Source: an uncultured Acidobacteriota bacterium (lineage in GTDB: Bacteria > Acidobacteriota > UBA6911). From it: a stretch of DNA of 64,000 nt. Below, one piece after another: positions 24,038-58,696 of this stretch; position 1 is the first letter of the stretch; every line of letters begins with the position of its first letter. The notes below the pieces were generated by a model that was not told the origin of the DNA, did no database searches, and worked only from the letters and a program-made list of their open reading frames with translations. The translations under genes and the position numbers were made by a program. Location of the stretch: positions 9,012-73,011 of the forward strand of contig CAWIVH010000018.1 of assembly GCA_963839475.1 (NCBI GenBank), in the 5' to 3' direction.

Positions 24038-27019
24038 TCATTTCACAATATTCACCGTAATCGCGGAGGACATGCCCCCAAGTTCCGCTGGGCCGGATTG
24101 AATCTGGGCGGCAATGCCCAGACTTCGATCGGCGGAGGACGGCACTTTGACTGGAAATCCGTCGAATGCCACTTCGATCTTTGTAGGATAGAGCAGAAGG
24201 TAAGGCCTCTTTGGCGAAGTCCCGGGGATATAGTTGAAATTCAGTCCGGATCCGGCGCCAGGGAGTTTGGTCACGATCATCTTGCCTTTGCCGGGATCAC
24301 GTTCATCATTTTTATAGGCCAGATACAGTTCGACTTTGTCTGCCGTCGTAGATCCTACACGCCAATCGTAATCCGATGACGGGTACCAATAGGAACCATA
24401 GTCTTTAAGCAACTTATAGGTGCCCACCACGGTACCGCCGGTCAGCCCGGAGAGGACACGATCGACGTTAAAAAAGTTGAGGCTGAAACCGATCATGGGC
24501 AAATCGAGGGCCTTCTGGTTGAACGTCACAGTAAAAGGAACCTCACTCCCGGCCGCGGTGCCGGGTAAAGCGAGGTCCACAACTGGACCGAATAGCACTC
24601 TCGAGATATATCCATTCCCTGGGCCGGAGCCGTTGTCGACCCGGATGGCTCCCTCAACCATGCCTTCAGGGACAATCACGGATAAACTGCCGGTGTCGAT
24701 TTGTATGGGATAGGCGATCTGGGTGGCGCCTTTGTCCATCGGGAAAATGATCTTCGGGTCGCTTCCGAAATGGGTCCCCTTAAGGGTTGCCAGGTCTCCC
24801 ACCGAGAGGAACACTGGCGAGATGGAGCTTATATTCGCTTTCGCCGTATCGGGCGCCACAAATGTTATCGGCTGGGTGCTTTTCCTTAGGACTTTCGGCG
24901 CCAAATAGTAGGCAATGCCCGAGACGGAGGCGTAGTCGACCGTAACGACGGATGTCCCCGGACTCGCCGGAGCAAGAACCAGATCCGGCAGCAAATAGAA
25001 ATCCAAATCGATTTTGGCACCTTCATTCCATTGCGAATTGAGAGCCTCCACATTGAATATCTCGAGAAGAAGTCCCCCGGAGTTCGCATTGCTGATCTTT
25101 CCGGAGAAAAGGTTCAATGTGCTCAAATTGTACGCCTGCAAAGTCGGGAAGTTGGCGACAGCCTGGAATTCAAGGGGCTCCGTTTTGGTCACTACCAGCT
25201 TCATCAGACCGCTGTCATCGATGCGTCCGCCGAGCAGGAGAGTGCCGTAGCCTATTTCTGCTCCCTGCTTGAATCCGGCGGATTGAAGCCTCAGGGCGGG
25301 CAAAGCCATTTTCACTGATCTTATGGCCAGGTCATTCTCCTTGAGATGCAGTTTCCACCGCATCGCGGTGGAGGTGCCCGCCAGGTTCTGGGCAAACTCG
25401 ATGGCCGAATCGGGAGCAAACCCGTGAACTTTGGACATTACCGGCACTGAAGTCAGCTTCTCATCGATAGATCGCAGCGTAAGCGCCGCGATTGGATAAT
25501 TGCTGGTCACTCGGATCGTACCTTCGAACTCGCCGATGGAGGCATAATCCGGAAACAGTTGGGTCATGAAAAGCGCCTGGTGGGTCGATGGCGCCAGCTT
25601 CATGCTCTCTTTCCGGCTGGCTACATAAAATCCATCCCTGTTATAAAGCTCGAAGTAAACGCTCGTCGTGGTTGTGGTGTTGGTGGGATAGGCAACGGCG
25701 ATGCCGGTGTCAAAAAAACCAATCGAATCGGCGATCAGGTTGAATTTGGTCATCAGGTCCGCCGATTTCACCCCGACCTCGGCCAGGGCCTGCCCCTGGG
25801 CATCGAATACGTGAAATATCGCGGCTCCGCTGATCGGCTGGTCCATGGTCACTCGGCTCCACCCTACTTTCGCGTCCCCTGTTCCACTGGTTACGAGTCT
25901 TGTGACCGCCCGGACAGCCAGATCAAAATCAAAGGATGCCGCCGTCTTTCCCCCCATCGTCACAAGCATCGGAGTGCCATCGGATTTGAACAGCTCAATC
26001 TTGCCGGTGGCGCGGCTCGCGGTGTTGTTGATCAGGATGATGGATGTCGCATATTTCAGCTTTCCCAGCAGGCCGTCCGCAATCTGAGGGAAAACCAGCA
26101 ATTTCGTATTATTCATCGCAGACGGCGGCGCCACCATGGGAAGAGAGGTAAACTGGTCCCCGTTCAGCCGCAGTGTGATGCCCGCGAACTTCTTCCCATC
26201 GATCGAGCTGACTATGAGGGAACCCTCGAAATTATTGATATTGGCAACCGCGGGGAAAAACTCGTTCAGGAAGCGGGCAACATGCCCTTTGGTGCTAAGT
26301 TTCTGCGATGTCTCTGTTATTTTGATACCTTTGTCATCCATCAGCTCCAAGCGAAGTTCGGCTGCCTCTGTTTCGTTCGGGTTTACCAGCGCCAGGCCGG
26401 TGTAGTTGTTGTTCTTGCTGTCGGCAAAAATGGTGAAGCTGGTCCCGAGAAGCGATTCCGCCACCCCTACATCGGTATATATCTTTCCGTGCACATCCCT
26501 GATTCCGAAGCTGGCCGTGCCGGCCAAAGGCTGATCGGTTTCAATCGAGGCCCAGCCGGTCTTCAACGACGCAGTGCCCGAAGTTGCCAGCCGCACCAGC
26601 CCTCCCGGATAGACCGTAATCGGAATGCTGGAGTCGGTCAGTTTGCCCACCGTGAGCTTTAAGGGCGCGCCGCTGTCGTCGTAAAACTTCAGGAATCCGG
26701 TTGCGGCATAGTCCGAGTCGTTCTCCAGAATAAAGGTGGTCTGGTAACTGCGGTTGGTGCCCGGCAGCGCCCCGTCGGCAACCTGCGCGAAGATCATCCG
26801 CACCGGCGAATTGCCGGCCTGATAGTCGACGGGAAGATTCCAGCGGGGCAGCGCCGATGATGGAGCGGCATGCTCCGGTTCGCCGCGTAAGATCCGGGCC
26901 AGTTCCTGGAATCCGTGCGCTTCCAGTTCCTGGACAGTACTTTCATAGGCCGTCAACAATCGCCGCTTGAGAACCTCTTGAGAAAGTTCCAGGCTGCCTG
27001 CCGTTGGAAGCAGACTCAA
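24038..27019 (-). CDS. Large secreted modular protein: about 6 copies of the recurring uncharacterised ~105-aa module (roughly nt 25440-26800), then a C-terminal beta-rich region with an IPT/TIG-like Ig domain
   Basis: Copies begin IFAQVADGALPG..YQTTFILEN, ..YTGLALVNPNETEAAELRLEL, VFPQIADGLLGKLKYATSIILINN and ..DTGIAVAYPTN, with ends ..AGITLRLNGDQFTSLPMV and ..ALTLRSIDEKLTSVPVM. IPT/TIG-like segment: ISSISPVFLSVGDLATLKGTHFG. Confidence 0.75.
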   Translation of the reverse strand: MSLLPTAGSLELSQEVLKRRLLTAYESTVQELEAHGFQELARILRGEPEHAAPSSALPRWNLPVDYQAGNSPVRMIFAQVADGALPGTNRSYQTTFILENDSDYAATGFLKFYDDSGAPLKLTVGKLTDSSIPITVYPGGLVRLATSGTASLKTGWASIETDQPLAGTASFGIRDVHGKIYTDVGVAESLLGTSFTIFADSKNNNYTGLALVNPNETEAAELRLELMDDKGIKITETSQKLSTKGHVARFLNEFFPAVANINNFEGSLIVSSIDGKKFAGITLRLNGDQFTSLPMVAPPSAMNNTKLLVFPQIADGLLGKLKYATSIILINNTASRATGKIELFKSDGTPMLVTMGGKTAASFDFDLAVRAVTRLVTSGTGDAKVGWSRVTMDQPISGAAIFHVFDAQGQALAEVGVKSADLMTKFNLIADSIGFFDTGIAVAYPTNTTTTTSVYFELYNRDGFYVASRKESMKLAPSTHQALFMTQLFPDYASIGEFEGTIRVTSNYPIAALTLRSIDEKLTSVPVMSKVHGFAPDSAIEFAQNLAGTSTAMRWKLHLKENDLAIRSVKMALPALRLQSAGFKQGAEIGYGTLLLGGRIDDSGLMKLVVTKTEPLEFQAVANFPTLQAYNLSTLNLFSGKISNANSGGLLLEIFNVEALNSQWNEGAKIDLDFYLLPDLVLAPASPGTSVVTVDYASVSGIAYYLAPKVLRKSTQPITFVAPDTAKANISSISPVFLSVGDLATLKGTHFGSDPKIIFPMDKGATQIAYPIQIDTGSLSVIVPEGMVEGAIRVDNGSGPGNGYISRVLFGPVVDLALPGTAAGSEVPFTVTFNQKALDLPMIGFSLNFFNVDRVLSGLTGGTVVGTYKLLKDYGSYWYPSSDYDWRVGSTTADKVELYLAYKNDERDPGKGKMIVTKLPGAGSGLNFNYIPGTSPKRPYLLLYPTKIEVAFDGFPVKVPSSADRSLGIAAQIQSGPAELGGMSSAITVNIVK

Positions 27020-27352
27020 GATGATTGATTGCAGGGAGTGCCAATTGCCAGACGAGTCGGGAAAACTTGGAAGAGATCGTCATGGGACCTCCACCGATGA
27101 TGGGGTTACGATGGATATTATACGCCAGAATTGTGCAGCGCGATATTTATCCCTGGAGTATGCCAATGCAAACTGCCGCAGCAATTAGGCTACACAGATC
27201 AGGATCGATTCTTTCGTCCTCTTGAGGGCATCTGGGGTGAACTGCCTGGGAAAGCTTGCGGGACGGGCTTTTTATCGATGCTGCTTCCGTAAATCAGACT
27301 CATCCGGTTCATCAATATGGTAACGTGTTTTTTAGTTGCGGAGGCCTGCAAA

Positions 27353-28879: not shown

Positions 28880-28972
28880 CACAATTGGGGGATGAGCAAT
28901 ATTCAAGAGCTTCCAAATGGGTTTGTCGCGCATATGCAGATTCATCAGTCCCGGTATCACATGGAGGAAACA

Positions 28973-30168: not shown

Positions 30169-30244
30169 ATCGAATGTACCTGGATCACAACTCGCCGATC
30201 GCAATTATCGCAGCAAGCGCCGGATCGCTTCAAAAATGACCGGG

Positions 30245-31606: not shown

Positions 31607-31711
31607 AATGTCGTCTCCCTCGGCTCCAGTTTAGGGGCGGGTACTGAGAAACATGAAATCGTGATTCTGGCCTATTGTAACGTGAAAGTCTGCTCGGAGG
31701 AGATTTCGCGG

Positions 31712-34180: not shown

Positions 34181-34281
34181 GAAGTGTTGGCTTCGCCTCA
34201 GTCTCTATAAAGTTGAGGATACTTTAGCATGGCTCGAGTAAGCCGCTGACTCGCATGATGAGTGAGTCCACCAACTATGAA

Positions 34282-34806: not shown

Positions 34807-34974
34807 CTTCTTACCTAGTTGCCGCACGACTGAGCTCATGCAAACGATCCGATGTAAACCTTCGAAGCCAGGAATCCCTCCGAAAGGTGCATCGCCAGGG
34901 TTTCAAAAGCAACACCAGAGTTTTAGGTGCAGGAGGCAGTCCCCGGCCTCGCTGTTCTTCCTGTTCACAAGGAT

Positions 34975-36268: not shown

Positions 36269-38317
36269 CTAGCGCGCCCAGAGTCGCTCAAATTCCGCTT
36301 TATAGTTCTGGATCGTTGTAGATCCCGTTAAAAAAAGGGCATTTTCATAATTGGAGCTTTCAGCCGAGGCCGACCAGTTGTAGCTGCCTGTAAACAATAC
36401 CCTGGAATCCAGAAGCATGAATTTATTGTGCATTATCCCGCCCGCGATGCCGGTCATCCGCTTCAAATCAAAGCCCAGTCCTTCGAGGGTCGTAATCTCG
36501 CTTCCCGAGCCCTCTGCCTGGCTGTTATCGGCAATGATCCGAATAGTCACTCCGCGATTCCTGGCGGCGATAAGGGCATCCCGTGTTGCATCAGCCGTAA
36601 AGCTGTAGATAGCAATATCAATGTTCGATTGAGCTTTGTTGATTTCCGCTATCAGGCGGTCGCGAACCCCTCCATTGGGCGAAAACAAAGCGGTCGCTCC
36701 GGCCGGAACGTACCCAGATTGGTTTGCGGATACCGTCGAAAAAACGGAGGTGGAATGGTACCGCAGGACTGTTGCCGCCAGGTACCCGGATGCAAGGCTA
36801 ATCTCCACCCTTCCCGTTGGGGCTCCGCTCCCGAAAACCTGCGAAAGAAAAGCAGCCGTGTGGCTTCCCGGGGGGAGCTTGATCGGGGAGACACCGAACT
36901 CTGAACCGTCCTTCCGAAGCAACCTTATCGTTCCATTCGCCTCCAGGCTCCCGGGATTGGCAAGGGCAAATCCGGTTTGGAAGTCGCGATCTTCATCCGC
37001 GAAGAAATCGATCTTTGACACTGGCAGAATTCCGGGAACCGAAGCCTCTGAAAACAAGGTCCGTCCTTTGTATAGCTGGAAAACTGCGTTCCCGCCCAAA
37101 TCGATAAAAGGGGCGGAGGTCACGCGAACCCATCCTGTCGCGACGGAAGCCGCCGATCCCGAGGTGGATACTTTGGTAGAGCCGCGCGCCGGAACAAACA
37201 CCTCCTTCGTAGCCGAATTCACGCCATCCACAGCAATACTCAGCGGCTCCCCTGAATCCGAAAAAAAAGAAAGCGTCGCATGCGTGGCTGTGTCGGTGGG
37301 ATTCGTGAGCAGGAAGTCCGATACATAGCCGCCGCCATCGGCAAATTGTGGGAAGACGAAATTGGCTTGGACCTCCGCAGCGGCAGCACGCGCGACTGGA
37401 ACAGTCATGATCGCGGCCGCTTTCCGACCCTGGTCGTCGATCACCGCCACGGGTATCGGCTTCGCGCCGGTCGGAAGAGAGTCCGGCACACTATATTGGA
37501 AGGAAAATTTCAAATCGCCGGCTCTCTCATCGCCTTGAGTTCCATCATCATAAAACCGCTGGATGAGCGGGCCATTCAACGATGAAAGATCACCCGACAC
37601 AGTGATTCCGGTGCTTGCAGGATTCGCCCCTGGAACGACGGTCGCGATCATCAGAACGCTTCCGCCGGGTGTTACCGGAGCCGGCTTCACAATGGCAGTT
37701 ATTGTCGGATTCGTTGAGGGGAATGTTCCCGTGCTGTTGCGCGGATTGGGCGGTCCAGTCGTGAAGTCCTGAGCATTGTTGTCGGTGTCGGTTGTTCCGC
37801 CGTTTACCCGGAACAATGCAGTCGTGTTGGACAAGGAAGGAGCAGGACTACCTTCTGAACAGTTGGCGCCGCCATAGCCGACAAGGTCGACAACTCCGGA
37901 CGGACATCCGCCCGCCAGGGCCGAACTATTGCTGGTGAGGGCAACCTTGCCGGCGCTGGAACCCAAAGCCAGCATGCCCCTGGCATCAGGCACCGGAAGG
38001 TCGACCGTGCCACCTGCCCCTTGGGCCTCTTCAATCAAAAAATATCGGCCCGGCAGGAGGGTGCCGGTTAGAGGCGTGGCCTCCCAGGTCGTGCCGCCGG
38101 CTGATGAATATTGGACGGCCCAGCCTGCAAGATCCACGGGGGTTGTGCCGCGGTTATAGAGCTCAATAAAATCGTTCTTATAGCTGGCGCCGGAGTTGCC
38201 GCCGCCACCGTAAACTTGGCTGATGACGATGCTGGGAGATGCCGAAAACGACGGCAAGGCGCGCGCGGCTAAGACAGCCGCGACGATCAGAGTAACCCTG
38301 CTGCATGCGCGAAGCAT
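36269..38317 (-). CDS. Secreted nuclease-like protein: lamin-tail domain (LTD), Ig-like linker, one two-lobed copy of the recurring uncharacterised module (~nt 36757-37417), and a C-terminal PLD-family HKD (Nuc-like) domain
   Basis: LTD: ISQVYGGGGNSGASYKNDFIELYNRGTTPVDLAGWAVQYSSAGGTTW. Module: NFVFPQFADGGGYVSDFLLTNP..GWVRV.. then FQTGFALANPG..LAATVLRYHSTSVFSTV. HKD: HNKFMLLDSRVLFTGSYNWS (HxKx4Dx6GSxN). Signal peptide MLRACSRVTLIVAAVLAARA. Confidence 0.8.
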   Translation of the reverse strand: MLRACSRVTLIVAAVLAARALPSFSASPSIVISQVYGGGGNSGASYKNDFIELYNRGTTPVDLAGWAVQYSSAGGTTWEATPLTGTLLPGRYFLIEEAQGAGGTVDLPVPDARGMLALGSSAGKVALTSNSSALAGGCPSGVVDLVGYGGANCSEGSPAPSLSNTTALFRVNGGTTDTDNNAQDFTTGPPNPRNSTGTFPSTNPTITAIVKPAPVTPGGSVLMIATVVPGANPASTGITVSGDLSSLNGPLIQRFYDDGTQGDERAGDLKFSFQYSVPDSLPTGAKPIPVAVIDDQGRKAAAIMTVPVARAAAAEVQANFVFPQFADGGGYVSDFLLTNPTDTATHATLSFFSDSGEPLSIAVDGVNSATKEVFVPARGSTKVSTSGSAASVATGWVRVTSAPFIDLGGNAVFQLYKGRTLFSEASVPGILPVSKIDFFADEDRDFQTGFALANPGSLEANGTIRLLRKDGSEFGVSPIKLPPGSHTAAFLSQVFGSGAPTGRVEISLASGYLAATVLRYHSTSVFSTVSANQSGYVPAGATALFSPNGGVRDRLIAEINKAQSNIDIAIYSFTADATRDALIAARNRGVTIRIIADNSQAEGSGSEITTLEGLGFDLKRMTGIAGGIMHNKFMLLDSRVLFTGSYNWSASAESSNYENALFLTGSTTIQNYKAEFERLWAR

Positions 38318-39502: not shown

Positions 39503-39522
39503 TCGCGGCTCCCATCATAGGC

Positions 39523-45389: not shown

Positions 45390-48116
45390 ATGCGTCAGCC
45401 CAATCAACGGTGTGGAGTCCCAGCGGCGCTGATGAATTTGAAAAATCTCGCGGCACTGCTCTTTGCATTCTGTTTCCTGGTCAGCGGCGTTTGTGCCCAG
45501 AACCGTTACTACATGCCGCAAATTGCTAACGGTCGCGACAGCGCCGGAACTTACAAGACAACATTCGTTCTAAATAACAATTCTGCCACCAAAGCCACCG
45601 CTACCTTGCAGCTTTCCGATGATAACGGCAACCCGCTGGCAATAACGATTGGCGGGAATTCCGACAGCCGCTTTGTCATTCAAATGCCCGCCGGAGGAAC
45701 TCAACTACTCCAGACCGACGGCCTGGGAAGCCTGGCAAGCGGCGCCGCCAAAATTGATTCAACGGCGGCCATCGGAGTTTCATCCATTCTCAGCATTTAT
45801 GATTCGAACGGGAACTGCAGAGCCGAAACAGGGATTGGTAGCTCCGAACCAATGTCCAGTTTCGTGTTTCCTGTGGATACAACGGGCGCATTCAATACCG
45901 GTCTGGCGCTTTACAACATAAATGATTCCAGTGTCACTGTGACGATGACCTTGCGCAGCACAACCGGACAGCAGGCTGCTTCGCCGGTAGTACTGACGAT
46001 GGCTGCGCATCGCCACTTCGCAAGATTCGTTTCCGGTGCCGGGCAACTCTTCCCGCAGATAACAAATTTCCAGGGCACACTGTTGGTCCAATGCTCCGAA
46101 CCCATTGCTTCATCGGTGTTGCGGCAAAATACCACGCCGCTTTCCTATACGTCCCTTTCCGGGATATCGACAGCATCGACGCAGAAAATAATGAATCTTG
46201 CTCAAGTGGCCAATGGTTCCTTTGGAAGCGGGGGATATAAAACCTCATTCCTCATTTTCAATATTTCCGCGGTCCCGGCCAACCTGACCCTGAGCCTGAC
46301 GAATGACAGAGGCAGACCATGGAAGGTGCCCATTACTGGTCGGGGGGAAGACGACAAGTTCACAATCTCCAACCTGGCGTCGGGCGCTTCCCTGTTCCTC
46401 CAGACTGAGGGTTCCGGCGAATTGACAACCGGCGGAGCCACGATAACCTCCGATGTCCCGGTGGGAGTTTCCGGCATCTACACACTTGTGGACTCCCGGG
46501 GATCCTTTCAAACTGAAACGGGGGTTGGATGCTCGCCAACCCTGACATCGCTGACCCTTCCCGTCAGCATTTCGGGCAGCTTCGACACCGGTGTCGCCTT
46601 TTTCGGGGTGAGCGGCTCCAATGCCGCGCTCACCTTCCGTCTGCGGGATGCCGGCGGAATGCCTGTCGGACAGAGCATTTCAGGGAATCTGCCTGCAAGC
46701 GGCCATATGGGAGTTTTCGTATCCCAACTTTTCAACGGCATAGAAAATTTCAAAGGATCGCTTTCCGTTTCTTCAACCACAGGCATAGCGGCGCTCACCT
46801 TGCGCGTGAACACTTCCCCGATTTCCTTTACCACCTTTCCGGTCACGGCGGGAATCCCGAGTTCAGCCGGCGGCGCCAGATTCACCATTGCAGAAACCAT
46901 CTCAGATCAGGCTCAGAGCACAACCCTCGCCTTCTCGGGCCTGGCGATGATGACCGGTAACCTCGAAGCTCAGTCCTTTTTCCCGCCGGGCAAAGTGGCC
47001 GACTACACCGGTTTTCAGTATCTGCGCGACAATGATCCCGACAATATGGGCCACAACACCAGCTTCCTCACCCGCATCGCCAACAACGTGATCTTCCTCT
47101 TGGACGACAGCCAGTTTGCCAAACTGAAGACTCTGGCCATCGCACAGCTCCAGCAGATCGACCTGTACGGGTATAAGCGCTTCCCCCTGATGAAGGCCTT
47201 CCGCAGGGTTATGAACAGTGAAATCCCTGCCGGGTCGGCCGGATTGAACCTGAACGCCGTAAAAAAGGCCTCACGGGAGCTCTATATCCTGGACGGCCAG
47301 ATCAGCTATGACCGAGCCGTGCTCTATGCCGCCATAATCCGGTCCCTGGACAGCACTCAAAAAGCCTACCTGGACGCGATGAAGGGCAAAGGCTGGAACT
47401 CCTGGCCTGATATCTCCGAAGCTCAGGTTCAAACCAGGATGAGGAGCCTGCCCCAGGGCACTGCCGTTGCGGTGATGACCTATGCCAGCGACCTGTTCAG
47501 TTGGTATGCGGGCTCCGTCGAAGCTGACGTCTACTTCTGCCCCGAGCGCCAGGGAACCTACTATGGCTCTTTTTATATCAAGGATGCTCCTGCCATCGGC
47601 CATGAAGGATACGGCATCAATGAGCAACTGACAGCCACGGCCGGGTCTGCACTTTGCGACAGCAAGCAAGGCTATGTAACGGAAGCTCAGGCAGCCACAA
47701 TGACGAGCCTGGTAGACAGACAGAGAAACAATCTCTACGCCTCCACAACCTCGAATATCGTCTCGGTCCGGACGGAAATCGCCACATTGCTGCGTGACTT
47801 GCTCACCACGACGAGCTCACCCGACACGATCAAAGCCAAGGTCCTGGCACTATCGGGAACTTACGGCGATCTGGACGGCGAAAACAATTATTACTACGCC
47901 AGCGTTTTCGCCCAAGTCTACAAAACGCTGAGCACGGAGCAGAAGACCAAGCTGGCAGGCCTGCGAAAATCGATCATGTCCGGGACGTACTCCGACGGCA
48001 CTGCCTTTGATTTTTCCACTTGCTCCACCCCATTCCTCTATTCCAGCGTCATCACGGATGTCAGCCAGCTGGCACCCTATTTGAGCAATACTGACTTTCT
48101 ATTTTTCGAGCCCTAA
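45390..48116 (+). CDS. Large secreted protein: N-terminal array of about 5 copies of the recurring uncharacterised module (~nt 45510-46870), then a ~420-aa C-terminal domain of unknown function (largely alpha-helical by composition)
   Basis: Signal peptide MRQPNQRCGVPAALMNLKNLAALLFAFCFLVSGVCAQ after RBS ggagga. Copies begin YYMPQIANGRDSAGTYKTTFVLNNN, ..NTGLALYNINDSS.., LAQVANGSFGSGGYKTSFLIFNIS and ..DTGVAFFGVSGS.., with ends ..SVLRQNTTPLSYTSLSG and ..ALTLRVNTSPISFTTFPV. Confidence 0.75.
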   Translation: MRQPNQRCGVPAALMNLKNLAALLFAFCFLVSGVCAQNRYYMPQIANGRDSAGTYKTTFVLNNNSATKATATLQLSDDNGNPLAITIGGNSDSRFVIQMPAGGTQLLQTDGLGSLASGAAKIDSTAAIGVSSILSIYDSNGNCRAETGIGSSEPMSSFVFPVDTTGAFNTGLALYNINDSSVTVTMTLRSTTGQQAASPVVLTMAAHRHFARFVSGAGQLFPQITNFQGTLLVQCSEPIASSVLRQNTTPLSYTSLSGISTASTQKIMNLAQVANGSFGSGGYKTSFLIFNISAVPANLTLSLTNDRGRPWKVPITGRGEDDKFTISNLASGASLFLQTEGSGELTTGGATITSDVPVGVSGIYTLVDSRGSFQTETGVGCSPTLTSLTLPVSISGSFDTGVAFFGVSGSNAALTFRLRDAGGMPVGQSISGNLPASGHMGVFVSQLFNGIENFKGSLSVSSTTGIAALTLRVNTSPISFTTFPVTAGIPSSAGGARFTIAETISDQAQSTTLAFSGLAMMTGNLEAQSFFPPGKVADYTGFQYLRDNDPDNMGHNTSFLTRIANNVIFLLDDSQFAKLKTLAIAQLQQIDLYGYKRFPLMKAFRRVMNSEIPAGSAGLNLNAVKKASRELYILDGQISYDRAVLYAAIIRSLDSTQKAYLDAMKGKGWNSWPDISEAQVQTRMRSLPQGTAVAVMTYASDLFSWYAGSVEADVYFCPERQGTYYGSFYIKDAPAIGHEGYGINEQLTATAGSALCDSKQGYVTEAQAATMTSLVDRQRNNLYASTTSNIVSVRTEIATLLRDLLTTTSSPDTIKAKVLALSGTYGDLDGENNYYYASVFAQVYKTLSTEQKTKLAGLRKSIMSGTYSDGTAFDFSTCSTPFLYSSVITDVSQLAPYLSNTDFLFFEP

Positions 48117-48255
48117 GTTTATTTGCTCCAGATATTTAACCGCGAGGACCTTGAGGACTTCAATGGCGGAAAAGCCCTTAGGGTCTTCGCGGTTTTTGTG
48201 GTTCAATCTGCCATTGGTTCTTTGAGGCAATTTTTCTCAATCAGATGTAAACCTT

Positions 48256-49782: not shown

Positions 49783-49991
49783 ATCAATCCATCATCCGGC
49801 GGAGCATAAACAGTCTATTCTCTCCACCTGGCATTGCCGGGGGACGCCAACCCATACCGGGGAGCGCGGACCCGAGGGTGGAACTCTGCCGAGGCAACCG
49901 ATTGTGAAATCTTATGAAGCACGAGGATAGACCGCCAACTCGGGCCATCCTCATGCCCGAGCATCCACGCTCTCGAAGGAGGCCAAGGGAA

Positions 49992-52900
49992 ATGCGATCC
50001 TTTACCGCATGCGTTATCGTCACTCTGTCTTTGATTGGATTTTACGGGAGTTCGCCCGCTCAGACCGCTGCGGGTCCGTCCATGGTTTTCATTCCTGCCG
50101 GTTCATTCAGCATGGGCGACCACCACAATTATGTGGATCCCGCACACCCGAGCGATGAAACACCGCTTCATACTGTCAGCATCAACGCTTTATACGCGGG
50201 GAAATACGACATTACGGTCCAGCAATACTGCGATTACCTCAACTCAGCCATATCGCAGGGATTGATTCGTGTGACGAGCGGCATCGTGTATGCATCGGGT
50301 GGAAGCGATGTTTTCTTCCAGACCCGCCAGGCCGACCAATACAGCCGCATCGATTGGGATGGCAGCCGGTTTTCGGCACTCGACGGGCGCGGCAATCACC
50401 CGGTTACCAGCGTGCTTTGGCACGGAGCCGCAGCCTACTCCAACTGGCTCAGCGCGCAGCAGGGTTATCAGGCCTGCTACAACACTTCGACCTGGGCATG
50501 TGACTTCACCAGGAACGGCTACCGCCTGCCCACAGAGGCCGAGTGGGAATACGCCGCCCGCGGGGGCCAATATAATCCCTATTACAACTTCCCTTGGGGT
50601 AACGACATAACGATGTCGAAGGCGAACTTCCCCGGCTCAGGGGATCCCTATGAATCCGGCGCCCTCCCCAACACCACCCCCGTCGGATTCTATAATGGGG
50701 AACTGCGTCGCAAATCCGACTTCAATTGGCCGGGCAGCCAGGAAACCTATCAAACGTCGGACGGTTCTAACGGTTTCGGCCTCTACGACATGGCGGGCAA
50801 CGTCTGGCAGTGGTGCAACGACTGGTATGGGCAAAGCTACTACGCTTCGAGCCCGTCCTCCAATCCGACCGGGCCTACGACCGGAACCCCCATGCCGGAC
50901 GGCAAGCCCTATCGCGTCCTGAGAGGCGGAAACTGGTATAACGGCGACGGTCTGGATCCGGGGCATGCGCGCGTTTCCAACCGGGATCCCGCATATTATC
51001 GGGGACCACAGGATCCCAACCACCCTTATTACCATGTGGGATTCCGCGTGGTAAGAAGTAATGTAACCGCCAGCACAACTACAAGCACTCAAACGGTGGG
51101 CCTGTTCGTCAATGACTCCAGAGCCTGGGAAGGTTACACCCTCATCGCCCCCAAGCATTACGGTAGCACTTACCTGATCAACAACCAGGGCAGGCTCGTT
51201 CATTCCTGGTCGGGCAGCAAATACGAGCCGGGACAGTCGGTCTACCTTCTGGAGAACGGCAACCTGCTGCGCGCATGCATGGTCAAAGGCCAGTTAAGTT
51301 CCGGAGGAGGCGAGGGCGGACGGGTTGAGGAATACGATTGGGACGGGAACCTGGTGTGGCAGCTGGATTACTCCACCAGCCAATACACCCAGCACCACGA
51401 CATCAAACCGCTTCCCAACGGCAACATCCTGATGCTGGTCGTGGAAAAGAAAACCTACGATGAGGCGATTGCCGCAGGGTTCGACCCGAGCAAGTTCCAG
51501 TCGCAGATCCAGCAGCAGGGATATATGCTCCCCGACTCGGTCATAGAAATTAAACCGACAAGGCCGTCGGGGGGAACCGTTGTCTGGTCGTGGCATGTTT
51601 GGGACCACCTGATCCAGGACTACGCATCATCCAAAGCGAATTACGGCAGTGTGGCAGCCCACCCTGAACTGATCAATCCGGCTGCCGACGGGGGGCAGAT
51701 CCCTTCCTTCTGGAACCACATGAATGCGATCTACTACAACGCAGCCTTCGACCAGATTATGCTCAGCGTCCGGGGAAACAGCGAAATCTGGGTCATCGAT
51801 CACAGCACCACCGATGCGGAAGCTGCGGGACATTCAGGAGGAAAATATGGGAAGGGGGGAGACCTGCTATACCGATGGGGCAATCCGATCATGTATCGCG
51901 CCGGCACGAAAAGCGATCAGAAGCTCTTCCAGCAGCACGACGCCCAATGGATAGACGCCGGATACCCCGGCGCCGGAAATATCCTGGTATTCAACAACGG
52001 GCTCGGTCGCAACTATTCCACTATTGACGAATTCACTCCGCCGGTCGACTCCAAAGGGAATTATTCCTATACCAGCGGTTCGGCGTTCGGCCCCAAAGAT
52101 TTCGCCTGGACCTACAAGGCAAACCCTCCGGCCTCACTTTATGCCGAGGCGATCTCGGGAGCACAACGGCTGCCGAATGGAAATACACTGATCACCGATG
52201 GCACACACGGGACATTCATAGAGGTTACCGCCGGCGGGGAGACGGTCTGGAAATATGTCAATCCTGTCGTACTCACCGGCCCGCTGGCGCAATCGGCCAC
52301 AATACCCGCTGACCCGGCACGAGCCGGCGAATTCATGAACGCCGTGTTCCGTGTCCGCCGATATTCCCCGAATTACGCCGGGCTTGTAGGCCGCACTCTG
52401 ACTCCCGTCGGAACCATCGAACTGAAAGGCTACAGCAACACCAACTATTTCCCCCACGTCGCCTCCGACGGCACATGGGAAACCGAAATAGCACTCATCA
52501 ATACCAGCGCCGATCAGACAGTCACCGGGATCTGGAGACCGTTTACCAATGACGGCCGCCAGCTGGACACACAGCAGATCTCCCTGGCTCCGCGATCAAG
52601 ACGCGAGATCATTATCGGCAGCGCATTGGCAAATGCAAAGTTGACCGGGTATGCCCTCTTTGAAGCGGATTCGGCTTCTTTAGCCGGCTATACCAAGTTT
52701 TATGTGCCGGGGAAATACCGGACCGCGGTTCCGTCCATTTCGACCGCAAGTTCGGGAAATCTCTTTCTGTCTCATATCGCTTCAGACGACCTCTGGTGGA
52801 CCGGAATGAGCCTGGTCAATACCACTCAGTCGAGCAAGACGGTGACGATTCAATTCGACAACGGCGAATCCCGGACCGTCACGATAGGCGCCTTATCCCA

Positions 52901-53711
52901 CAATGCCCTCCTGTTGGAAAGCCTATTCGGCAGCAAGCCGCAGCCCAACATACATTCGGCCGTGCTGAAAGATGCGGCAGGAATTGTGGGAGTGGAGCTT
53001 TTTGGCAGCGGGAGTCAGTTGGCGGGTATCCCCCTGACCAACGACACGTCGACCGTTGTTTATTACCCCCACATCGCCGCCGACTCTCACTGGTGGACCG
53101 GTGTTCTTGCCTTCAATCCTGGAGAAGAGGCGGGCGACCTGGTCCTTACACCTTACAATGAAGATGGCCGGCCCCTGATAACTTTGAGCCGCTCCCTGCT
53201 GGGCAAATCGAAATACATAGGGACAACAACGACGCTGGGATTGCCCGCGAATGCGGCGTGGTTCCAGATCGAATCAACCAAGCCCATCTCCGGATTCGAA
53301 TTATTCGGCGCCCAACAGGAAAGCCTCCTAGCAGGATTTCCGGGAACTGGTTTGAAAAGCAGGAATGCTGTCTTTCCCAAAAAAGAAAGGGCAGGCTGGA
53401 CAGGCATCGCCCTGGTCAACCTGGAGAATGATCCGGCGACGGTTTCGTTAAACGCCTATGACGACGCCGGAAGTGTCGTAACCTCCAACACCTTCAGCCT
53501 GGGAGCTCACGCCAAGATGTCGAAATACGCCCAGGAATTCTTCGTGCAGGATATCGCCAGAGCCACTTATTTCAGCTATTCATCCGATAAGTATCTGGCG
53601 GGATTCCAGCTCAATGGTTCGACAGACGGGACCATGCTGGACGCGCTCCCGGCCCGGTTGGAGAAGCAAGGCGCACCTGAAACCCAAAGCCCAAAACAGC
53701 AGCGGAGCTGA
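49992..53711 (+). CDS. Secreted three-part protein: FGE-sulfatase-fold (SUMF1-like) domain that appears to lack the catalytic Cys pair, an arylsulfate sulfotransferase (ASST)-like beta-propeller, and 4 copies of the recurring uncharacterised module (~nt 52447-53711)
   Basis: FGE fold: MVFIPAGSFSMGD..GYRLPTEAEWEYAARGG..GLYDMAGNVWQWCNDWY..RVLRGGNW..HVGFRVVRS. ASST: ..WSWHVWDHLIQD.., NHMNAIYYN, QHHDIKPLPNGNILML. Module copies begin YFPHVASDGTWETEIALINTS, LFLSHIASDDLWWTGMSLVNTT, VYYPHIAADSHWWTGVLAFNPG and AVFPKKERAGWTGIALVNLEND. Confidence 0.8.
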   Translation: MRSFTACVIVTLSLIGFYGSSPAQTAAGPSMVFIPAGSFSMGDHHNYVDPAHPSDETPLHTVSINALYAGKYDITVQQYCDYLNSAISQGLIRVTSGIVYASGGSDVFFQTRQADQYSRIDWDGSRFSALDGRGNHPVTSVLWHGAAAYSNWLSAQQGYQACYNTSTWACDFTRNGYRLPTEAEWEYAARGGQYNPYYNFPWGNDITMSKANFPGSGDPYESGALPNTTPVGFYNGELRRKSDFNWPGSQETYQTSDGSNGFGLYDMAGNVWQWCNDWYGQSYYASSPSSNPTGPTTGTPMPDGKPYRVLRGGNWYNGDGLDPGHARVSNRDPAYYRGPQDPNHPYYHVGFRVVRSNVTASTTTSTQTVGLFVNDSRAWEGYTLIAPKHYGSTYLINNQGRLVHSWSGSKYEPGQSVYLLENGNLLRACMVKGQLSSGGGEGGRVEEYDWDGNLVWQLDYSTSQYTQHHDIKPLPNGNILMLVVEKKTYDEAIAAGFDPSKFQSQIQQQGYMLPDSVIEIKPTRPSGGTVVWSWHVWDHLIQDYASSKANYGSVAAHPELINPAADGGQIPSFWNHMNAIYYNAAFDQIMLSVRGNSEIWVIDHSTTDAEAAGHSGGKYGKGGDLLYRWGNPIMYRAGTKSDQKLFQQHDAQWIDAGYPGAGNILVFNNGLGRNYSTIDEFTPPVDSKGNYSYTSGSAFGPKDFAWTYKANPPASLYAEAISGAQRLPNGNTLITDGTHGTFIEVTAGGETVWKYVNPVVLTGPLAQSATIPADPARAGEFMNAVFRVRRYSPNYAGLVGRTLTPVGTIELKGYSNTNYFPHVASDGTWETEIALINTSADQTVTGIWRPFTNDGRQLDTQQISLAPRSRREIIIGSALANAKLTGYALFEADSASLAGYTKFYVPGKYRTAVPSISTASSGNLFLSHIASDDLWWTGMSLVNTTQSSKTVTIQFDNGESRTVTIGALSHNALLLESLFGSKPQPNIHSAVLKDAAGIVGVELFGSGSQLAGIPLTNDTSTVVYYPHIAADSHWWTGVLAFNPGEEAGDLVLTPYNEDGRPLITLSRSLLGKSKYIGTTTTLGLPANAAWFQIESTKPISGFELFGAQQESLLAGFPGTGLKSRNAVFPKKERAGWTGIALVNLENDPATVSLNAYDDAGSVVTSNTFSLGAHAKMSKYAQEFFVQDIARATYFSYSSDKYLAGFQLNGSTDGTMLDALPARLEKQGAPETQSPKQQRS

Positions 53712-53826
53712 AGGCCCGAAGGGCCGGAAGAGAATAGCCGGGGGCGCGAGCCCCCGGATTGATTTGTTCTCCGGACGAGCCCCGAAAGGGGCGACAGGAT
53801 GAATCTACTCCTGTTTTGATGGCATT

Positions 53827-55365
53827 CTAATGACCCATCCGTTTTTGGAAATAGGCAATCATCTCCTCCCGGTGGTTGTCGGTCCGGGACGGCACATTCG
53901 GTTGCCGGATCTCCGGAGCGTTTTCATCCAGATAGGGTTTGGCTGCAACATCTTGCGGGCGCCATGCAGCGATGGCCCGTATAAGTTCGCTTATCTCCCG
54001 ATGGAACCGGGCATCGCCGTAGAGGTTGTTGATTTCGAACGGGTCCGCATCCAGATCGAAGAAGAGCGACCTCTCTGCCGGTTTGCGTAAAATCAGCTTG
54101 TACTGCTTCGTGCGGGCCATCCATTGGCCGGCGCTTTCCGAAAAAACAACCGTTCTTCGTGCTGACGTAGCCAGATTCAAACCGCGCATCCCCGCACCAG
54201 GCCGCAGGCCAGCCTGGTGTAGTATGGTTGGCGCCAAATCCACCGTACTGGCCAGAGTGGTGTCCACCCGGCCGCGCGAAACACCCCGGGGATATTTAAT
54301 GATGAGTGGCACCTTCACAACCGGGTCGTACATGAGATTGCCCTTTAAGAGGAGGTGATGGAACCCCATGTAATCCCCATGATCGGAAGTAAAAACAATG
54401 AGAGTGTTGTCGTAAAACCCCTTCTCTTTGAGAATACGCACCATTCGGCCGACGTGGAAATCGATCTGGGAAATGCTGGCATAGTAAAGAGCCGTAACGA
54501 TTTTCAGCGCCCCCGCTGTGAGACTGGCGTGGGGGAAGTATCCTGCGCTGGTTTCGATGTCCCGCGCCAAAGGCTCCTCCGTCCAGCCGGGCAGGAGCGA
54601 GATTTGCGAGGGATCGTATTTGGAATCCCAGGGAGCCGGCGGGTCAAAGGGATGGTGCGGCTTGATGAAGCCGACCATCAGCAGGTTTCCCGATGGCGTC
54701 CAACGCCGCAGGGACTGAATGGCCCTCTCCGCAATCCATGTCGTTGAATGGTGCTGTTCCGGAAGGTTTGAACGGCGGGCCCCGAAGGACTGCCAATACT
54801 CTTTTGTTGCTTTGGCGCGATATTCCGAACGTTGATCTTCAAGATCGAGTGCGTCGACCAGGTCCAGGGATTTCAAGTAGCGGTGATAATCATCGTCAAA
54901 TCGCCCGGGCCCATCCTGCTCCGCCAATTCCAACTCCTCGAATCCGACATCCAGGTAGGTCGGGGTAAAATGCATCTTCCCGACGGCTTTGGTACGGTAC
55001 CCAGCCTTCTTGAGAATGGAAGGAAAGGTTTCAGTCCCCGGCCGGAGCGTCGCGCGGTTGCTGGATCCCTGGTGCTCGTGGGTCCAAAGGCCCGACAGGA
55101 AGGAATAGCGCGACGGGGTGCAAACAGGGTAGGGACAGAAAGAATTCGTGAAGCGCACTCCTTCACTCGCAAGCGCGTCAATGGCCGGGGTGCGGATTTC
55201 GCGGTTGCCATAAGCGCCGAGGCATTCCAAACGATGCTCATCGGTGTGAATGATCAGGATGTTGGGCTTTGCCGCGGCGTCCCCGGACTTCCGTCCGCCT
55301 CCCAAAACAGTCGCTGCGCCGGCGGCCGCTGCCTGTTGGATGAACTTGCGCCTATCTGTTTTCAT
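53827..55365 (-). CDS. Cys-type sulfatase (alkaline-phosphatase superfamily) with a TAT signal
   Basis: MKTDRRKFIQQAAAAGAATVLGGG (twin-Arg). Sulfatase signature PNILIIHTDEH..CPYPVCTPSRYSFLSGL (C-T-P-S-R). Confidence 0.85.
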   Translation of the reverse strand: MKTDRRKFIQQAAAAGAATVLGGGRKSGDAAAKPNILIIHTDEHRLECLGAYGNREIRTPAIDALASEGVRFTNSFCPYPVCTPSRYSFLSGLWTHEHQGSSNRATLRPGTETFPSILKKAGYRTKAVGKMHFTPTYLDVGFEELELAEQDGPGRFDDDYHRYLKSLDLVDALDLEDQRSEYRAKATKEYWQSFGARRSNLPEQHHSTTWIAERAIQSLRRWTPSGNLLMVGFIKPHHPFDPPAPWDSKYDPSQISLLPGWTEEPLARDIETSAGYFPHASLTAGALKIVTALYYASISQIDFHVGRMVRILKEKGFYDNTLIVFTSDHGDYMGFHHLLLKGNLMYDPVVKVPLIIKYPRGVSRGRVDTTLASTVDLAPTILHQAGLRPGAGMRGLNLATSARRTVVFSESAGQWMARTKQYKLILRKPAERSLFFDLDADPFEINNLYGDARFHREISELIRAIAAWRPQDVAAKPYLDENAPEIRQPNVPSRTDNHREEMIAYFQKRMGH

Positions 55366-55655
55366 CGCGATTTCCCGAAATACATGCAGCCAATTGAGCT
55401 GCTCATTCACAAATTCTAATAAAAGAGCCACAGACCGCTTTTGTATATCACAACGGGCAGTTTTTTGGCCGTTTACTTCCGCCATGCAGTTATCCGGGAA
55501 AACAGGGACGCCACCCAACTGCAGCTGCTGGAATGGGCCGGGAATCTAATGATGCTGAAATGCATGTAATTGGGCAGCGTCCAATTTCCCATATTTTTGG
55601 ATCCGCCTGTAACCCTGGATGTTCGATTTTACGACAATACAACCAGACTGCCTGA

Positions 55656-55847
55656 GTGGAAGACTCAATGAGGAAAAGCCTGATCGTTTTGCTCGGCTCG
55701 GGGAACCCAGCTGCCGTAACCGTACAATATCTGGGAGACGACGGCATGCCTCTTTCTGTGGGTGGAAGTCGAAAAGGCAATGCATCCAATTCGAATTCCA
55801 ACCTTTCAGCGATTACGACTGCTACAATTTCTCGGGAGAAAAAATGA
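55656..55847 (+). pseudogene. Relic fragment of the recurring module (C-terminal ~30 aa), upstream of and out of frame with the next gene
   Basis: The fragment reads LIVLLGSGNPAAVTVQYLGDDGMPLSVGG. It aligns with FILLSAGDPAAATLSFFGQDGSPLAVGK at the 3' end of 55844..58696. Codon usage differs, so it is not a recent copy. Confidence 0.35.
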
Positions 55848-58696
55848 AGAAACGCACCCTGATTCCCCAGCTTCTGGCTCTGTGGTCCGGCATAACCGCC
55901 CTTTCATGGCTGCTTGCAGCATCCGACATCTTCATAGATACGGAGCTATTGGGCCGTCCGACAGGCACCTCCATTACGGTCAATGCCCTCGCCCGCAAGG
56001 ATCTCGAAGTTTATTTTGAATACGGACCATCGACCGGCAGTTATGTTCTCCAGACCGATACGAATAAATATCCTGCAGAAACCCCGATAGAGGCTGTAAT
56101 GGACAGGCTCGAGCCTGATAAGCAGTATTACTACCGGATGCGCTATCGAGAAACCGGAGCCACGGTTTTTTCAGCCGGGGAAGAACACTCCTTTCATACC
56201 CAGAGGCCACGCGGCAGCACATTCACTGTCGCCATTGAAGCCGACCCGCACATGGATGAAAACTCCGATCCGGAAACCTACCGTCTGACGATGCAGAACG
56301 TGCTCTCGGAAAAACCGGACTTCCAGATCGACCTGGGCGACACCTTCATGTCCGACAAACTTTCCCAGCCCACTTATAAGGCGGTCCAGGACCGTGCGCT
56401 CCTTCTCCGATCGTATTACGATATCAATGGGCATTCGGTCCCGCTGTTCCTGACCCTGGGAAACCACGAAGGTGAATGGGGGAGCCGCTTGACCAACTCG
56501 GCGGAAAACCTGCCGGTGTGGGACACGCTGATCCGGAAACTTTACTATCCCAACCCCTTCCCGGACGGATTTTATAGCGGCGGCAGCAGGGAGGAAAAAT
56601 ATGTGGGATTGCGCGAGAGTTACTACGCGTGGGAATGGGGTGACGCGCTCTTTGTGGTCCTGGATCCTTATTGGTACACGGTGCAATCGCCGGATTTGAG
56701 CGGGGACTGGTCGCTTACTCTGGGCCGTGAGCAGTATGCGTGGCTGAAAGCGACTCTGGAAGGCAGCCGAGCAACTTTCAAGTTCGTTTTTTGCCACAAC
56801 CTTGTAGGTGGATGGAACAAAAACGGCACGGGCCCCATGCGCGGTGGAGTTGAGGCGGCCAAATACCTGGAATGGGGCGGCTACAACCTGGACGACACCT
56901 GGGGCTTCGACAAGGCTCGCCCTGGCTGGGCGATGCCGATACATAAGCTGCTGGCCGCCAACAATGTGACCATCTTCTTCCATGGCCACGACCATGTCTA
57001 TGCGAAGCAGGATCTGGATGGGATCGTTTATCACGAGATTCCGCAGCCCAGCGCAAGAAATACCGAATTGGGCAATCGGGCGGCTTCTTATGGCTATACC
57101 CAGGGCAAGCTCCTGGGCGGAACCGGTCATCTGCGCATGCGCGTGTCCCCCAGCGAAGTAACGGTGGATTATGTCCAGACCTGGACACCTCAAAATGAAA
57201 CAGGCAGCCGGAAAAACGGACTGGTCGCGGACTCCTATACGATTGCTGCAAAAAACCGGACCAAGGCAAACCTGTCCGTTGCTGGCGGAGGTGCGGCAGA
57301 CACCGCCACCGCCGGCGCAGCCTCCCCGCTCCAGTCAGGCTACGCAACCACGGCCATCGCCTCCGGCAGTGCGCCTTACGGAAACGCCGTCTTCAGCTTC
57401 GCACGCAATGGAACCACCGTAAGCGAAGCCGCCGTTCCCGCTTCACCGCCCGCTTCCGCCTCCAGGATCTTCGTCGACTGCGCCCTCCGTGTCGCTTCCG
57501 GCCCCGAACGCCTCCGCACCGCGCCCGTCGACATCTATACCGGAATCGCCGTCGTCAACCCCGGCTCCGCCGCCGCCAACATAACCTACACCCTGCGCAG
57601 CCTCGACGCTGAACCCCTTTCCGTCGGACACGGCACCCTTGCCGCAGGCGCACAGCGCGCCCGATTCCTTCACCAGCTCCAGGACCTCGCCCCGGATTTC
57701 ACACTCCCGCCCGGCTTCGCCTCCACTACACGCTTCGGCTCGCTCGAAATCTCCTCCGATCAGCCGCTTTCCATCGCCGCCCTCCGCATGACCGTCAACC
57801 AGCGCGACGATTCCCTCTTTACCACCGTGCCCGTCGCCGACCTCTCCCGCTTGCCTTCTTCCTCCACCGTCTTCTTCCCCCATGTCGCCGACGGAGACGG
57901 CTACGTCTCCACCTTCATTCTCCTCAACACCTCCAGCTCGCCTCAAACCGGCCTCCTGCGCTTCCTTACCGATACCGGCTCGCCACTCACCATTCACCAG
58001 GTAGGCGGTACTGCTGACTCCTCTTTCCGCTACAGCATTCCTCCCGCCGGCACATTCCTCTTCCAGACCGACGGCTTCTCCACTTCCCTGCTCTCCGGCT
58101 CTCTCCAACTCATCCCCGACTCGGGCTCCACTTCCCCCGTCGGCGCCGGCATCTTCAGCAGAACCAGCAACGGCTTCCTCGTCACCGAATCCGGTATCCC
58201 CTCAGCTTCGCCCGGCACTCACGCCCGCATCCATGTCGACATGACCAACGGCCATGATTCGGGACTCGCGATCGCCTCCACCTCTTCGTCCGACCTCCCC
58301 GTCACCCTCCGCGCCTTTCAGAGCGACGGCTCGACCGCCGCGGGATCCCAGGCCATTACCCTCACCGTCCCCGGCAACGGCCATACAGCCGCTTTCGTCC
58401 GCCAGTGGATCTCAGGATTGCCCGCCGATTTCAAAGGCGTGCTCGATATCTCCGCCCCCGCTCCCTTTGCCGCCCTTACCCTGCGCGCCCTCACCAACTC
58501 GAGGCAGGATTTCCTCATCACCACCTTCCCGATCGCCGACTGGACCCGACCGGCACCGGCCCCTGTACTCTTCCCCCACCTCGCTGATGGCGACGGATAC
58601 AAAACCGAATTCATCCTCCTCAGCGCCGGCGACCCCGCCGCCGCTACCCTCAGCTTTTTCGGACAGGATGGATCCCCCCTCGCCGTGGGGAAGTAA
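55844..58696 (+). CDS. Secreted calcineurin-like metallophosphoesterase (PhoD/purple-acid-phosphatase-like) fused to ~4.4 C-terminal copies of the recurring uncharacterised module. The last copy is truncated after ..PLAVGK.
   Basis: Phosphoesterase motifs DLGDTFMSD, LTLGNHEG, CHNLVGG and FHGHDHVYAK. Signal peptide MKKRTLIPQLLALWSGITALSWLLAA after RBS gggaga. Module copies include VFFPHVADGDGYVSTFILLNTSS and VLFPHLADGDGYKTEFILLSAG, with ends ..IAALRMTVNQRDDSLFTTVPVAD and ..ALTLRALTNSRQDFLITTFPIAD. Confidence 0.8.
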   Translation: MKKRTLIPQLLALWSGITALSWLLAASDIFIDTELLGRPTGTSITVNALARKDLEVYFEYGPSTGSYVLQTDTNKYPAETPIEAVMDRLEPDKQYYYRMRYRETGATVFSAGEEHSFHTQRPRGSTFTVAIEADPHMDENSDPETYRLTMQNVLSEKPDFQIDLGDTFMSDKLSQPTYKAVQDRALLLRSYYDINGHSVPLFLTLGNHEGEWGSRLTNSAENLPVWDTLIRKLYYPNPFPDGFYSGGSREEKYVGLRESYYAWEWGDALFVVLDPYWYTVQSPDLSGDWSLTLGREQYAWLKATLEGSRATFKFVFCHNLVGGWNKNGTGPMRGGVEAAKYLEWGGYNLDDTWGFDKARPGWAMPIHKLLAANNVTIFFHGHDHVYAKQDLDGIVYHEIPQPSARNTELGNRAASYGYTQGKLLGGTGHLRMRVSPSEVTVDYVQTWTPQNETGSRKNGLVADSYTIAAKNRTKANLSVAGGGAADTATAGAASPLQSGYATTAIASGSAPYGNAVFSFARNGTTVSEAAVPASPPASASRIFVDCALRVASGPERLRTAPVDIYTGIAVVNPGSAAANITYTLRSLDAEPLSVGHGTLAAGAQRARFLHQLQDLAPDFTLPPGFASTTRFGSLEISSDQPLSIAALRMTVNQRDDSLFTTVPVADLSRLPSSSTVFFPHVADGDGYVSTFILLNTSSSPQTGLLRFLTDTGSPLTIHQVGGTADSSFRYSIPPAGTFLFQTDGFSTSLLSGSLQLIPDSGSTSPVGAGIFSRTSNGFLVTESGIPSASPGTHARIHVDMTNGHDSGLAIASTSSSDLPVTLRAFQSDGSTAAGSQAITLTVPGNGHTAAFVRQWISGLPADFKGVLDISAPAPFAALTLRALTNSRQDFLITTFPIADWTRPAPAPVLFPHLADGDGYKTEFILLSAGDPAAATLSFFGQDGSPLAVGK

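Follow-up and report, generated by a model that had tools for sequence, protein, structure and literature searches.

ASRT/TM1070-like heterodyads, and a circularly permuted tetrad built from them, on diverse proteins of Acidobacteriota

Acidobacteriota are among the most abundant bacteria of soil, and the deployment of their many secreted enzymes is little understood. Here we describe a family of β-rich modules found in five large genes, denoted A to E, on a 64,000-nt stretch of contig CAWIVH010000018.1 from an uncultured acidobacterium (positions 9,012 to 73,011 of the contig; hereafter the window). We find that the natural unit of this family is a pair of diverged β sandwiches, which by its fold very probably belongs to the ASRT/TM1070 (ASRAH) superfamily, and that this unit recurs in more than 16,000 protein clusters joined to a wide range of unrelated enzymes. 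In gene E and its homologues, two such pairs are circularly permuted into a cassette that is nearly confined to Terriglobia and may act as a common, glycan-binding address on otherwise unrelated exoproteins.

When the repeat region of gene B was used to seed jackhmmer against all six-frame open reading frames (ORFs) of the window, five ORFs only were recovered, A to E, with domain E-values from 1e-13 to 1e-102, and the unit that recurs among them is roughly 210–225 residues long. The profiles of its two halves, which we denote h1 and h2, align with each other at an hhalign probability of 98.5% (E 2.8e-15, 79 columns), so the module of around 105 residues is a genuine repeat that exists in two diverged flavours, with the consensus forms 'FP[QH]xADGGG[YW]xTxhxLxN' for h1 and 'TGhAhxN' for h2. 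Copies were placed with separate hidden Markov models (HMMs), one per half (Table 1): there are four half-modules in each of A, C and D, two in B and three complete ones in E, and h1 and h2 alternate strictly in all five genes. Gene B accordingly carries one dyad, genes A, C and D carry two each, and gene E carries a permuted tetrad. The natural unit is therefore a heterodyad of roughly 210–225 residues rather than a free-standing repeat of 105.

The five ORFs had been picked out before from the DNA letters and their translations (the sequence-only reading); they are present where that reading put them, and their repeats can be seen by eye in the translations. Its two alternating flavours agree with the strict order given by the half HMMs, and its tandem module of around 105 residues is a real repeat, although the larger heterodyad is the natural unit. 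The core motif that it wrote down has no match when taken literally, because its [FY]-x-P element is off by one and its T is often S; in a relaxed form, the motif finds 9 h1 and 9 h2 sites in the window as against 0 and 0.4 in shuffles. Of the positions that it gave for the module within the proteins, the single central one (B) stands, but the N-terminal cases are two (A and C) instead of one, and the C-terminal cases two (D and E) instead of three.

The fold of the module was modelled with AlphaFold2 (AF2). The model of the B dyad is all-β, with a predicted local distance difference test (pLDDT) score of 94.9 and a predicted template modelling (pTM) score of 0.89, and in it each unit of around 105 residues is an eight-stranded β sandwich that can be superimposed on TM1070 and ASRT. 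The Foldseek matches at probability 1.00 are 1nc7, 2ii7 and 2ii8 only, and beyond TM1070 and ASRT the fold-search scores fall to 6.9 or less (FlgD and assorted carbohydrate-binding modules (CBMs)). The best structural neighbour is thus TM1070/ASRT, and neither a generic Ig/FN3 linker nor a characterised CBM, both of which the sequence-only reading had considered. TM1070 (1NC7) and ASRT (2II7; PF07100) are single-domain cytoplasmic homotetramers, to which the modules of the window are 11–17% identical.

Profile comparisons point, more weakly, to the same superfamily. When a dyad profile was compared with 177,635 PDB sequences, the best match was ASRT (E 0.12), with 'AlvN' of the module aligned to 'CILN'; a mixed profile of h1 and h2 half-modules returned only noise from the PDB (E≥0.16) and did not recover ASRT. 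Seven bona fide ASRT proteins from plasmids served as controls (168–179 bits on Pfam PF07100), and h2 aligns with them at an hhalign probability of 74% (E 2.7e-5, 87 columns). When 33 dyads of the window and of database homologues are aligned, N21 and N136, which stand at the ends of strands E13–20 and E128–135, are at least 90% conserved, and they align with the Asn of ASRT 'C-I-L-N'. By its fold, the module is very probably a diverged member of the ASRT/TM1070 superfamily.

The ASRAH superfamily was defined in silico from ASRT and TM1070 in 2009 (de Souza, Iyer and Aravind; PMC2739507). The same authors placed in it two further families of secreted proteins, one fused to amidases in Chloroflexi and one of lipoproteins in Actinobacteria; Acidobacteria go unmentioned in their paper. 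The sequence hallmarks of the superfamily are a Trp where strand 1 begins and a 'nearly absolutely conserved asparagine at the end of strand 2' that holds the tight turn at this point. Families other than ASRT occur only as dyads or tetrads, read as mimics of the ASRT/TM1070 tetramer, and, on structural and gene-context grounds, sugars are predicted to bind in a cleft to which the dimer interface contributes (PMC2739507). The family in the window resembles the published secreted families in its β-sandwich fold, its strand-2 Asn, its secretion, its occurrence as dyads or tetrads only (the homologues carry one or two dyads), its fusion to enzymes and its predicted binding. The start of strand 1 is occupied by a conserved aromatic F/Y ('[FY]FP[QH]') and not by W, and a conserved W/Y lies in strand 2. 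In contrast to the published families, it is a different sequence family with two fixed, alternating flavours, it is joined to dozens of unrelated heads where they have one amidase head, and it goes beyond them with a C-terminal cassette formed by a circularly permuted tetrad and with its 16,338 clusters.

The sole Pfam model that sees the module is DUF5719 (PF18986), and its matches are marginal and partial. The excised B dyad scores 27.2 bits against a gathering cut-off of 26.2 and covers positions 53–127 of the 319 in the profile; full-length B (23.4 bits) and D (13.4–17.6 bits) stay below the cut-off, and A, C and E have no match. At E≤0.1, 8 of the 33 dyads match, and one homologue (P0003) carries a match as well. 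Because B and D match profile regions of approximately 50–127 and 174–311, DUF5719 itself appears to be a dyad, and judging from these alignments it may correspond to the actinobacterial lipoprotein dyad family of ASRAH. The module family belongs to neither Pfam ASRT nor DUF5719 and is, as we read it, a new, very large ASRAH family. It is thus not without named kin, as the sequence-only reading had supposed: TM1070/ASRT are found by fold search, ASRT is the top PDB profile match and DUF5719 matches marginally. As sugar binding by ASRAH domains is itself a prediction, this kinship does not turn the module into a well-characterised domain of known function. In a literature search, 'ASRAH' was used as a domain name in no paper beyond PMC2739507, and 'DUF5719' in none.

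Gene E ends in a different arrangement of the same parts, a cassette of roughly 475 residues that is a circularly permuted tetrad. The first h1 starts at HMM position 43–44 in gene E and in all homologues of its cassette, and the proteins end with HMM positions 2–42/43 of another h1. As these two fragments cover complementary ranges of the HMM, the circular permutation is exact. AF2 models the E cassette with a pLDDT of 94.9 and a pTM of 0.91 and builds its 42-residue tail as three strands (block-mean pLDDT 89–96); this confident placement suggests that they are packed in a defined site. Since domain 1 alone misses exactly these strands, we infer that the chain closes on itself. A pseudo-tetramer in the form of a closed, ring-like four-domain body is the likely outcome, going by the model, and the cassette would then be a naturally occurring ASRT tetramer in one circularly permuted chain.

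The family extends far beyond the window. Run against 1.84 billion cluster representatives, the dyad profile matches 16,338 proteins at E≤1e-3, 10,955 at E≤1e-10 and 3,432 at E≤1e-30, and these homologues are joined to PLD nucleases, rhodanese, NHL, β-helix, FN3, RHS, GH42 and other domains. The E cassette is 45–74% identical over 80–100% of its length among the 120 of 339 matches listed. In the listed matches, it is attached to cyclophilin, PEBP, SGL/NHL propellers, M20/M28 peptidases, metallophosphoesterases and FGE, and further to RHS/YD, Kelch, BNR/sortilin-like, S41 peptidase, CARDB and LRR heads. These names follow source labels and Pfam accessions. The sequence-only reading had proposed a single non-catalytic, β-rich module common to proteins with unrelated catalytic parts, and this pattern is borne out in the window and outside it. 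Short homologues that might have been stand-alone, head-less cassettes look like incomplete gene calls whose starts fall within a head or a cassette.

Among species-representative genomes, the cassette is nearly confined to metagenome-assembled genomes (MAGs) of Acidobacteriota/Terriglobia/Solibacteraceae. It is multiplied within them: of the best 80 loci, 13 lie in one MAG and 9 in each of three others. One cassette locus (L004, JAGDMJ010000240.1) comes from a MAG labelled 'Bacteroidetes bacterium', and all other loci are acidobacterial; the label could reflect a binning error or horizontal transfer.

We propose the following mechanism. The flavours h1 and h2 always follow one another and form a fixed heterodyad, and two dyads in one chain would probably reproduce the four-subunit tetramer of free ASRT and TM1070. 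In the E type, the C-terminal strands would complete domain 1 when the chain ends meet, locking a closed four-domain body equivalent to a single-chain, 'Velcro'-closed ASRT/TM1070 tetramer. Such a dyad or tetrad body, non-catalytic and ligand-binding, could provide a common 'address' on many different secreted enzymes. The ligand would most likely be a glycan of the cell envelope or the extracellular matrix, and its binding would keep the enzymes on or near the producing cell. We favour an address of this kind because sugar binding is predicted for ASRAH domains (PMC2739507), because the cassette, including its polar residues, is strongly conserved across paralogues, and because it has expanded within one lineage; the diversity of heads rules out a substrate-specific role. 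Taken as a whole, from ASRAH heterodyads through a permuted, closed tetrad to a shared glycan-binding address, we regard this explanation with moderate confidence, and we put forward its functional component, anchoring or glycan binding by the cassettes, as a tentative proposal.

Several observations weigh against this explanation. At the level of the superfamily, Pfam ASRT (PF07100) has no match at E≤1 to the five proteins or to the excised cassettes, and h1 aligns only weakly with the ASRT profile (hhalign probability 6.8%). In the alignment of h1 and h2 with ASRT, the pocket His and Cys of the TM1070/ASRT 'SHEshChhN' signature are replaced; this signature is likewise not kept in other non-ASRT families (PMC2739507). 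The closed body gains nothing from covariation. A mean-field direct coupling analysis of 259 cassettes (effective number of sequences, Meff, 208) is dominated by gap and indel artefacts, and within this limit the scores between the tail and domain 1 are not above those between the tail and other domains and are uncorrelated with those of the equivalent pairs inside domain 3. As for the address, we know of no secreted ASRAH domain for which ligand binding has been measured. Clustering the ORFs in the 3-kb flanks of 78 E-type loci gave antisense shadow ORFs and clusters of at most 7 loci, and no conserved neighbour or partner gene of the cassette at these 78 loci. The position in the chain is not uniform either, with tetrads N-terminal in A and C and a dyad internal in B. 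Finally, the sequence-only reading took all five proteins to be secreted, and signal peptides are recognisable in B, C, D and E, but in gene A a signal-peptide-like hydrophobic stretch is absent in every frame ahead of the first module (including 27020-27316), so only four of the five look secreted.

Which genes carry the module, and which do not, helps to separate the proposed address from other functions. In the window, the five module genes are dispersed among unrelated hydrolase, oxidoreductase and sensor genes, and the GH10 and GH31 genes lack the module by both jackhmmer and the half HMMs. A module of this type could be a CBM for polymers of the environment (polysaccharides of plants or fungi, for instance, or soil organic matter) that concentrates exoenzymes on food particles rather than on the surface of the producer. 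We consider this unlikely: the two glycoside hydrolase genes go without the module, the heads that do carry it are mostly not carbohydrate-active (cyclophilin, PEBP, PLD nuclease, phosphoesterase, peptidases and RHS), and the presence of one highly conserved cassette on all heads argues for a constant ligand and not for varied substrates.

A second alternative turns on the place of the cassette within the protein. Of 180 full-length matches, 170 have no more than 10 residues behind the cassette, which has the same '...G.PL.VGK' end in them; in the remaining 10, the sequence continues past the cassette, and these include N-terminal cassettes followed by an FGE domain. In P0222, P0291 and P0148, a signal peptide is followed by the cassette and then by roughly 240 residues (FGE-sulfatase in P0222 and P0291, unannotated in P0148), and the cassette is thus not obligatorily C-terminal. 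A sorting or secretion domain, read by dedicated export or attachment machinery in the manner of the C-terminal domain of the type IX secretion system (T9SS) or of exosortase signals, would suit the extreme C-terminal location and conserved end in about 94% of the 180 homologues, the high conservation of paralogues despite their unrelated heads and the limitation of the E type to one lineage, Terriglobia/Solibacteraceae. At 475 residues, however, the cassette is several times the size of known sorting domains, and no NCBIfam model (T9SS tail, Solibacter C-terminal domain and the like), sorting signals included, matches the cassette or the other module regions at E≤1. Related units are N-terminal (A, C, P0222, P0291) or internal (B), a machinery gene is conserved beside none of the 78 loci, and the free-standing relatives ASRT and TM1070 are cytoplasmic. 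A sorting function is, in our judgement, quite unlikely.

The pattern of conservation bears on two further readings. Conservation of at least 90% over 259 distinct cassettes is found at 112 of the 478 positions, among them 37 polar or aromatic ones; the motifs 'vtEsGiP...ARiyvD' and 'ALR.l.N.R.dfL.ttFP.AD' recur in both dyads of the cassette. If the cassette were a structural appendage, that is, a rigid β-sandwich spacer, folding aid or stabiliser that acts without a specific ligand, then it would not need as many as 37 polar or aromatic positions that are kept on unrelated heads and recur at equivalent places in both dyads, nor would an identity of around 50% across paralogues be expected, which makes such a role improbable. 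Least probable of all, and barely credible to us, is a small-molecule sensor that regulates the attached enzyme allosterically, a role put forward for cytoplasmic proteins of the ASRT type. In its favour, this is what is predicted for the stand-alone ASRAH family (PMC2739507); against it, the heads are too diverse for one common allosteric mechanism, the proteins bear signal peptides and the TM1070 pocket residues are not conserved.

The proposed address function has parallels in SLH domains and the T9SS C-terminal domain, each, as is generally known, one non-catalytic module, mostly C-terminal, carried by many unrelated secreted proteins within one lineage. The cassette differs from both in that there is no sequence or fold kinship and in its far larger size (around 475 residues). 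It is conceivable, though we think it doubtful, that Terriglobia have an undescribed system for surface display or retention, with the E-type permuted tetrad as its address tag. If that were so, a self-closing, lectin-like body would dock dozens of different exoenzymes from each genome onto a single polymer of the envelope or matrix, and the genes bearing the cassette would define the cell-bound exoproteome of abundant soil Terriglobia. One conserved, unannotated cassette on many secreted proteins, with at least 9–13 copies in some genomes, offers a concrete handle on these proteins, and its reach within Terriglobia poses a concrete question about how soil Acidobacteria deploy their exoenzymes. 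The little-studied ASRT/TM1070 superfamily, so far a handful of families, now takes in more than 16,000 protein clusters, and the module family reveals a large gap in the coverage of Pfam and NCBIfam. The fold and the general idea of binding had already been published in silico; the unmodelled family, its fixed heterodyads and the permuted, promiscuous C-terminal cassette are new.

Table 1 Module genes, half-modules and the intergenic fossil in the window (E, E-value of the match to the named HMM).
Feature	Coordinates	Strand	Remarks
Gene A	24038-27019	-	Two dyads; N-terminal
Gene A h1, first dyad	26447..26797	-	h1 HMM E 2.2e-30, positions 1-110
Gene A h2, first dyad	26123..26446	-	h2 HMM E 1.4e-26
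Gene A h1, second dyad	25754..26098	-	h1 HMM E 1.9e-30
Gene A h2, second dyad	25418..25753	-	h2 HMM E 6.1e-26
Gene B	36269-38317	-	LTD + dyad + PLDc_2
Gene B h1	37022..37360	-	
Gene B h2	36704..37021	-	h2 HMM E 1.7e-31
Gene C	45390-48116	+	Signal peptide, two dyads, then ~415 aa
Gene C h1, first dyad, right behind signal peptide	45507..45851	+	h1 HMM E 2.1e-27
Gene C h2, first dyad	45852..46181	+	h2 HMM E 2.4e-24
Gene C h1, second dyad	46191..46541	+	h1 HMM E 1.4e-23
Gene C h2, second dyad	46542..46859	+	h2 HMM E 1.3e-26
Gene D	49992-53711	+	FGE-sulfatase + arylsulfotransferase + tetrad
Gene D h1, first dyad	52443..52745	+	h1 HMM E 8e-26
Gene D h2, first dyad	52746..53054	+	h2 HMM E 2.3e-25
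Gene D h1, second dyad	53058..53354	+	h1 HMM E 1.2e-23
Gene D h2, second dyad	53355..53663	+	h2 HMM E 1.6e-28; subthreshold DUF5719, profile 174-311
Intergenic fossil of E-type cassette tail	55683..55829	+	Cassette-tail HMM, 30.7 bits, E 1e-8
Gene E	55844-58696	+	Metallophosphoesterase + cassette
Gene E first h1, without strands 1-3	57170..57451	+	h1 HMM positions 43-112 only, E 5.6e-13
Gene E h2, first dyad	57452..57856	+	h2 HMM E 4.3e-22
Gene E complete h1, second dyad	57869..58213	+	h1 HMM E 1.8e-31
Gene E h2, second dyad	58214..58558	+	h2 HMM E 7.4e-24
Gene E C-terminal 42-residue tail (h1 strands 1-3)	58565..58693	+	h1 HMM positions 2-42, E 5.5e-9

The partner domains that had been read from the translations are supported by Pfam in genes B (LTD and PLDc_2), D (FGE-sulfatase and arylsulfotransferase) and E (Metallophos), but the IPT/TIG domain proposed for gene A has no Pfam or PDB support. 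Outside its modules, residues of approximately 543–993 of A have no match among PDB sequences, and Pfam matches nothing anywhere in A; this part (24041-25393, minus strand) comprises around 450 residues and is β-rich, with an IPT-like stretch by eye only. Residues of approximately 494–908 of C match neither a PDB sequence nor a Pfam model, and this part (46869-48113, plus strand), around 415 residues long, is rich in helix by eye. The non-module parts of A and C are two further uncharacterised domains. Gene A begins with a TTG codon, and its start and localisation are uncertain; the starts assigned to C, D and E are internal Met codons upstream of signal-peptide-like stretches.

Gene D is adjoined by a sulfatase gene (53827-55518, minus strand; PF00884, E 1e-43), which may make up a functional sulfur-ester module with the FGE-like domain and arylsulfotransferase β-propeller of gene D. 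Between this sulfatase gene and gene E, just 5′ of the gene E start, lies the relic copy that had been noticed at 55656-55844, and it proves significant against the cassette-tail HMM (Table 1). The fossil corresponds to the last roughly 28–50 residues of an E-type cassette ('IVLLGSGNPAAVTVQYLGDDGMPLSVG'), with a stop codon ahead of it. Being a cassette tail, it indicates that another cassette-bearing gene formerly ended upstream of gene E, and it suggests that this gene was lost or rearranged at the site. More speculatively, it would fit frequent duplication or head exchange in the cassette family.

Elsewhere in the window, the ORFs at 431-3898 (plus strand; 1155 residues), 21194-23077 (plus; 627), 11693-12856 (plus; 387) and 62072-63400 (minus; 442) have no Pfam match at E≤1e-3, and all of them lack the module. 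Some of the plasmid loci that encode stand-alone ASRT (L080, L085 and L086, from Deinococcus and Klebsiella) have a GH15 enzyme, a gluconate dehydrogenase subunit and a sugar-porter MFS transporter as neighbours, which agrees with the link to sugar metabolism published for stand-alone ASRT.

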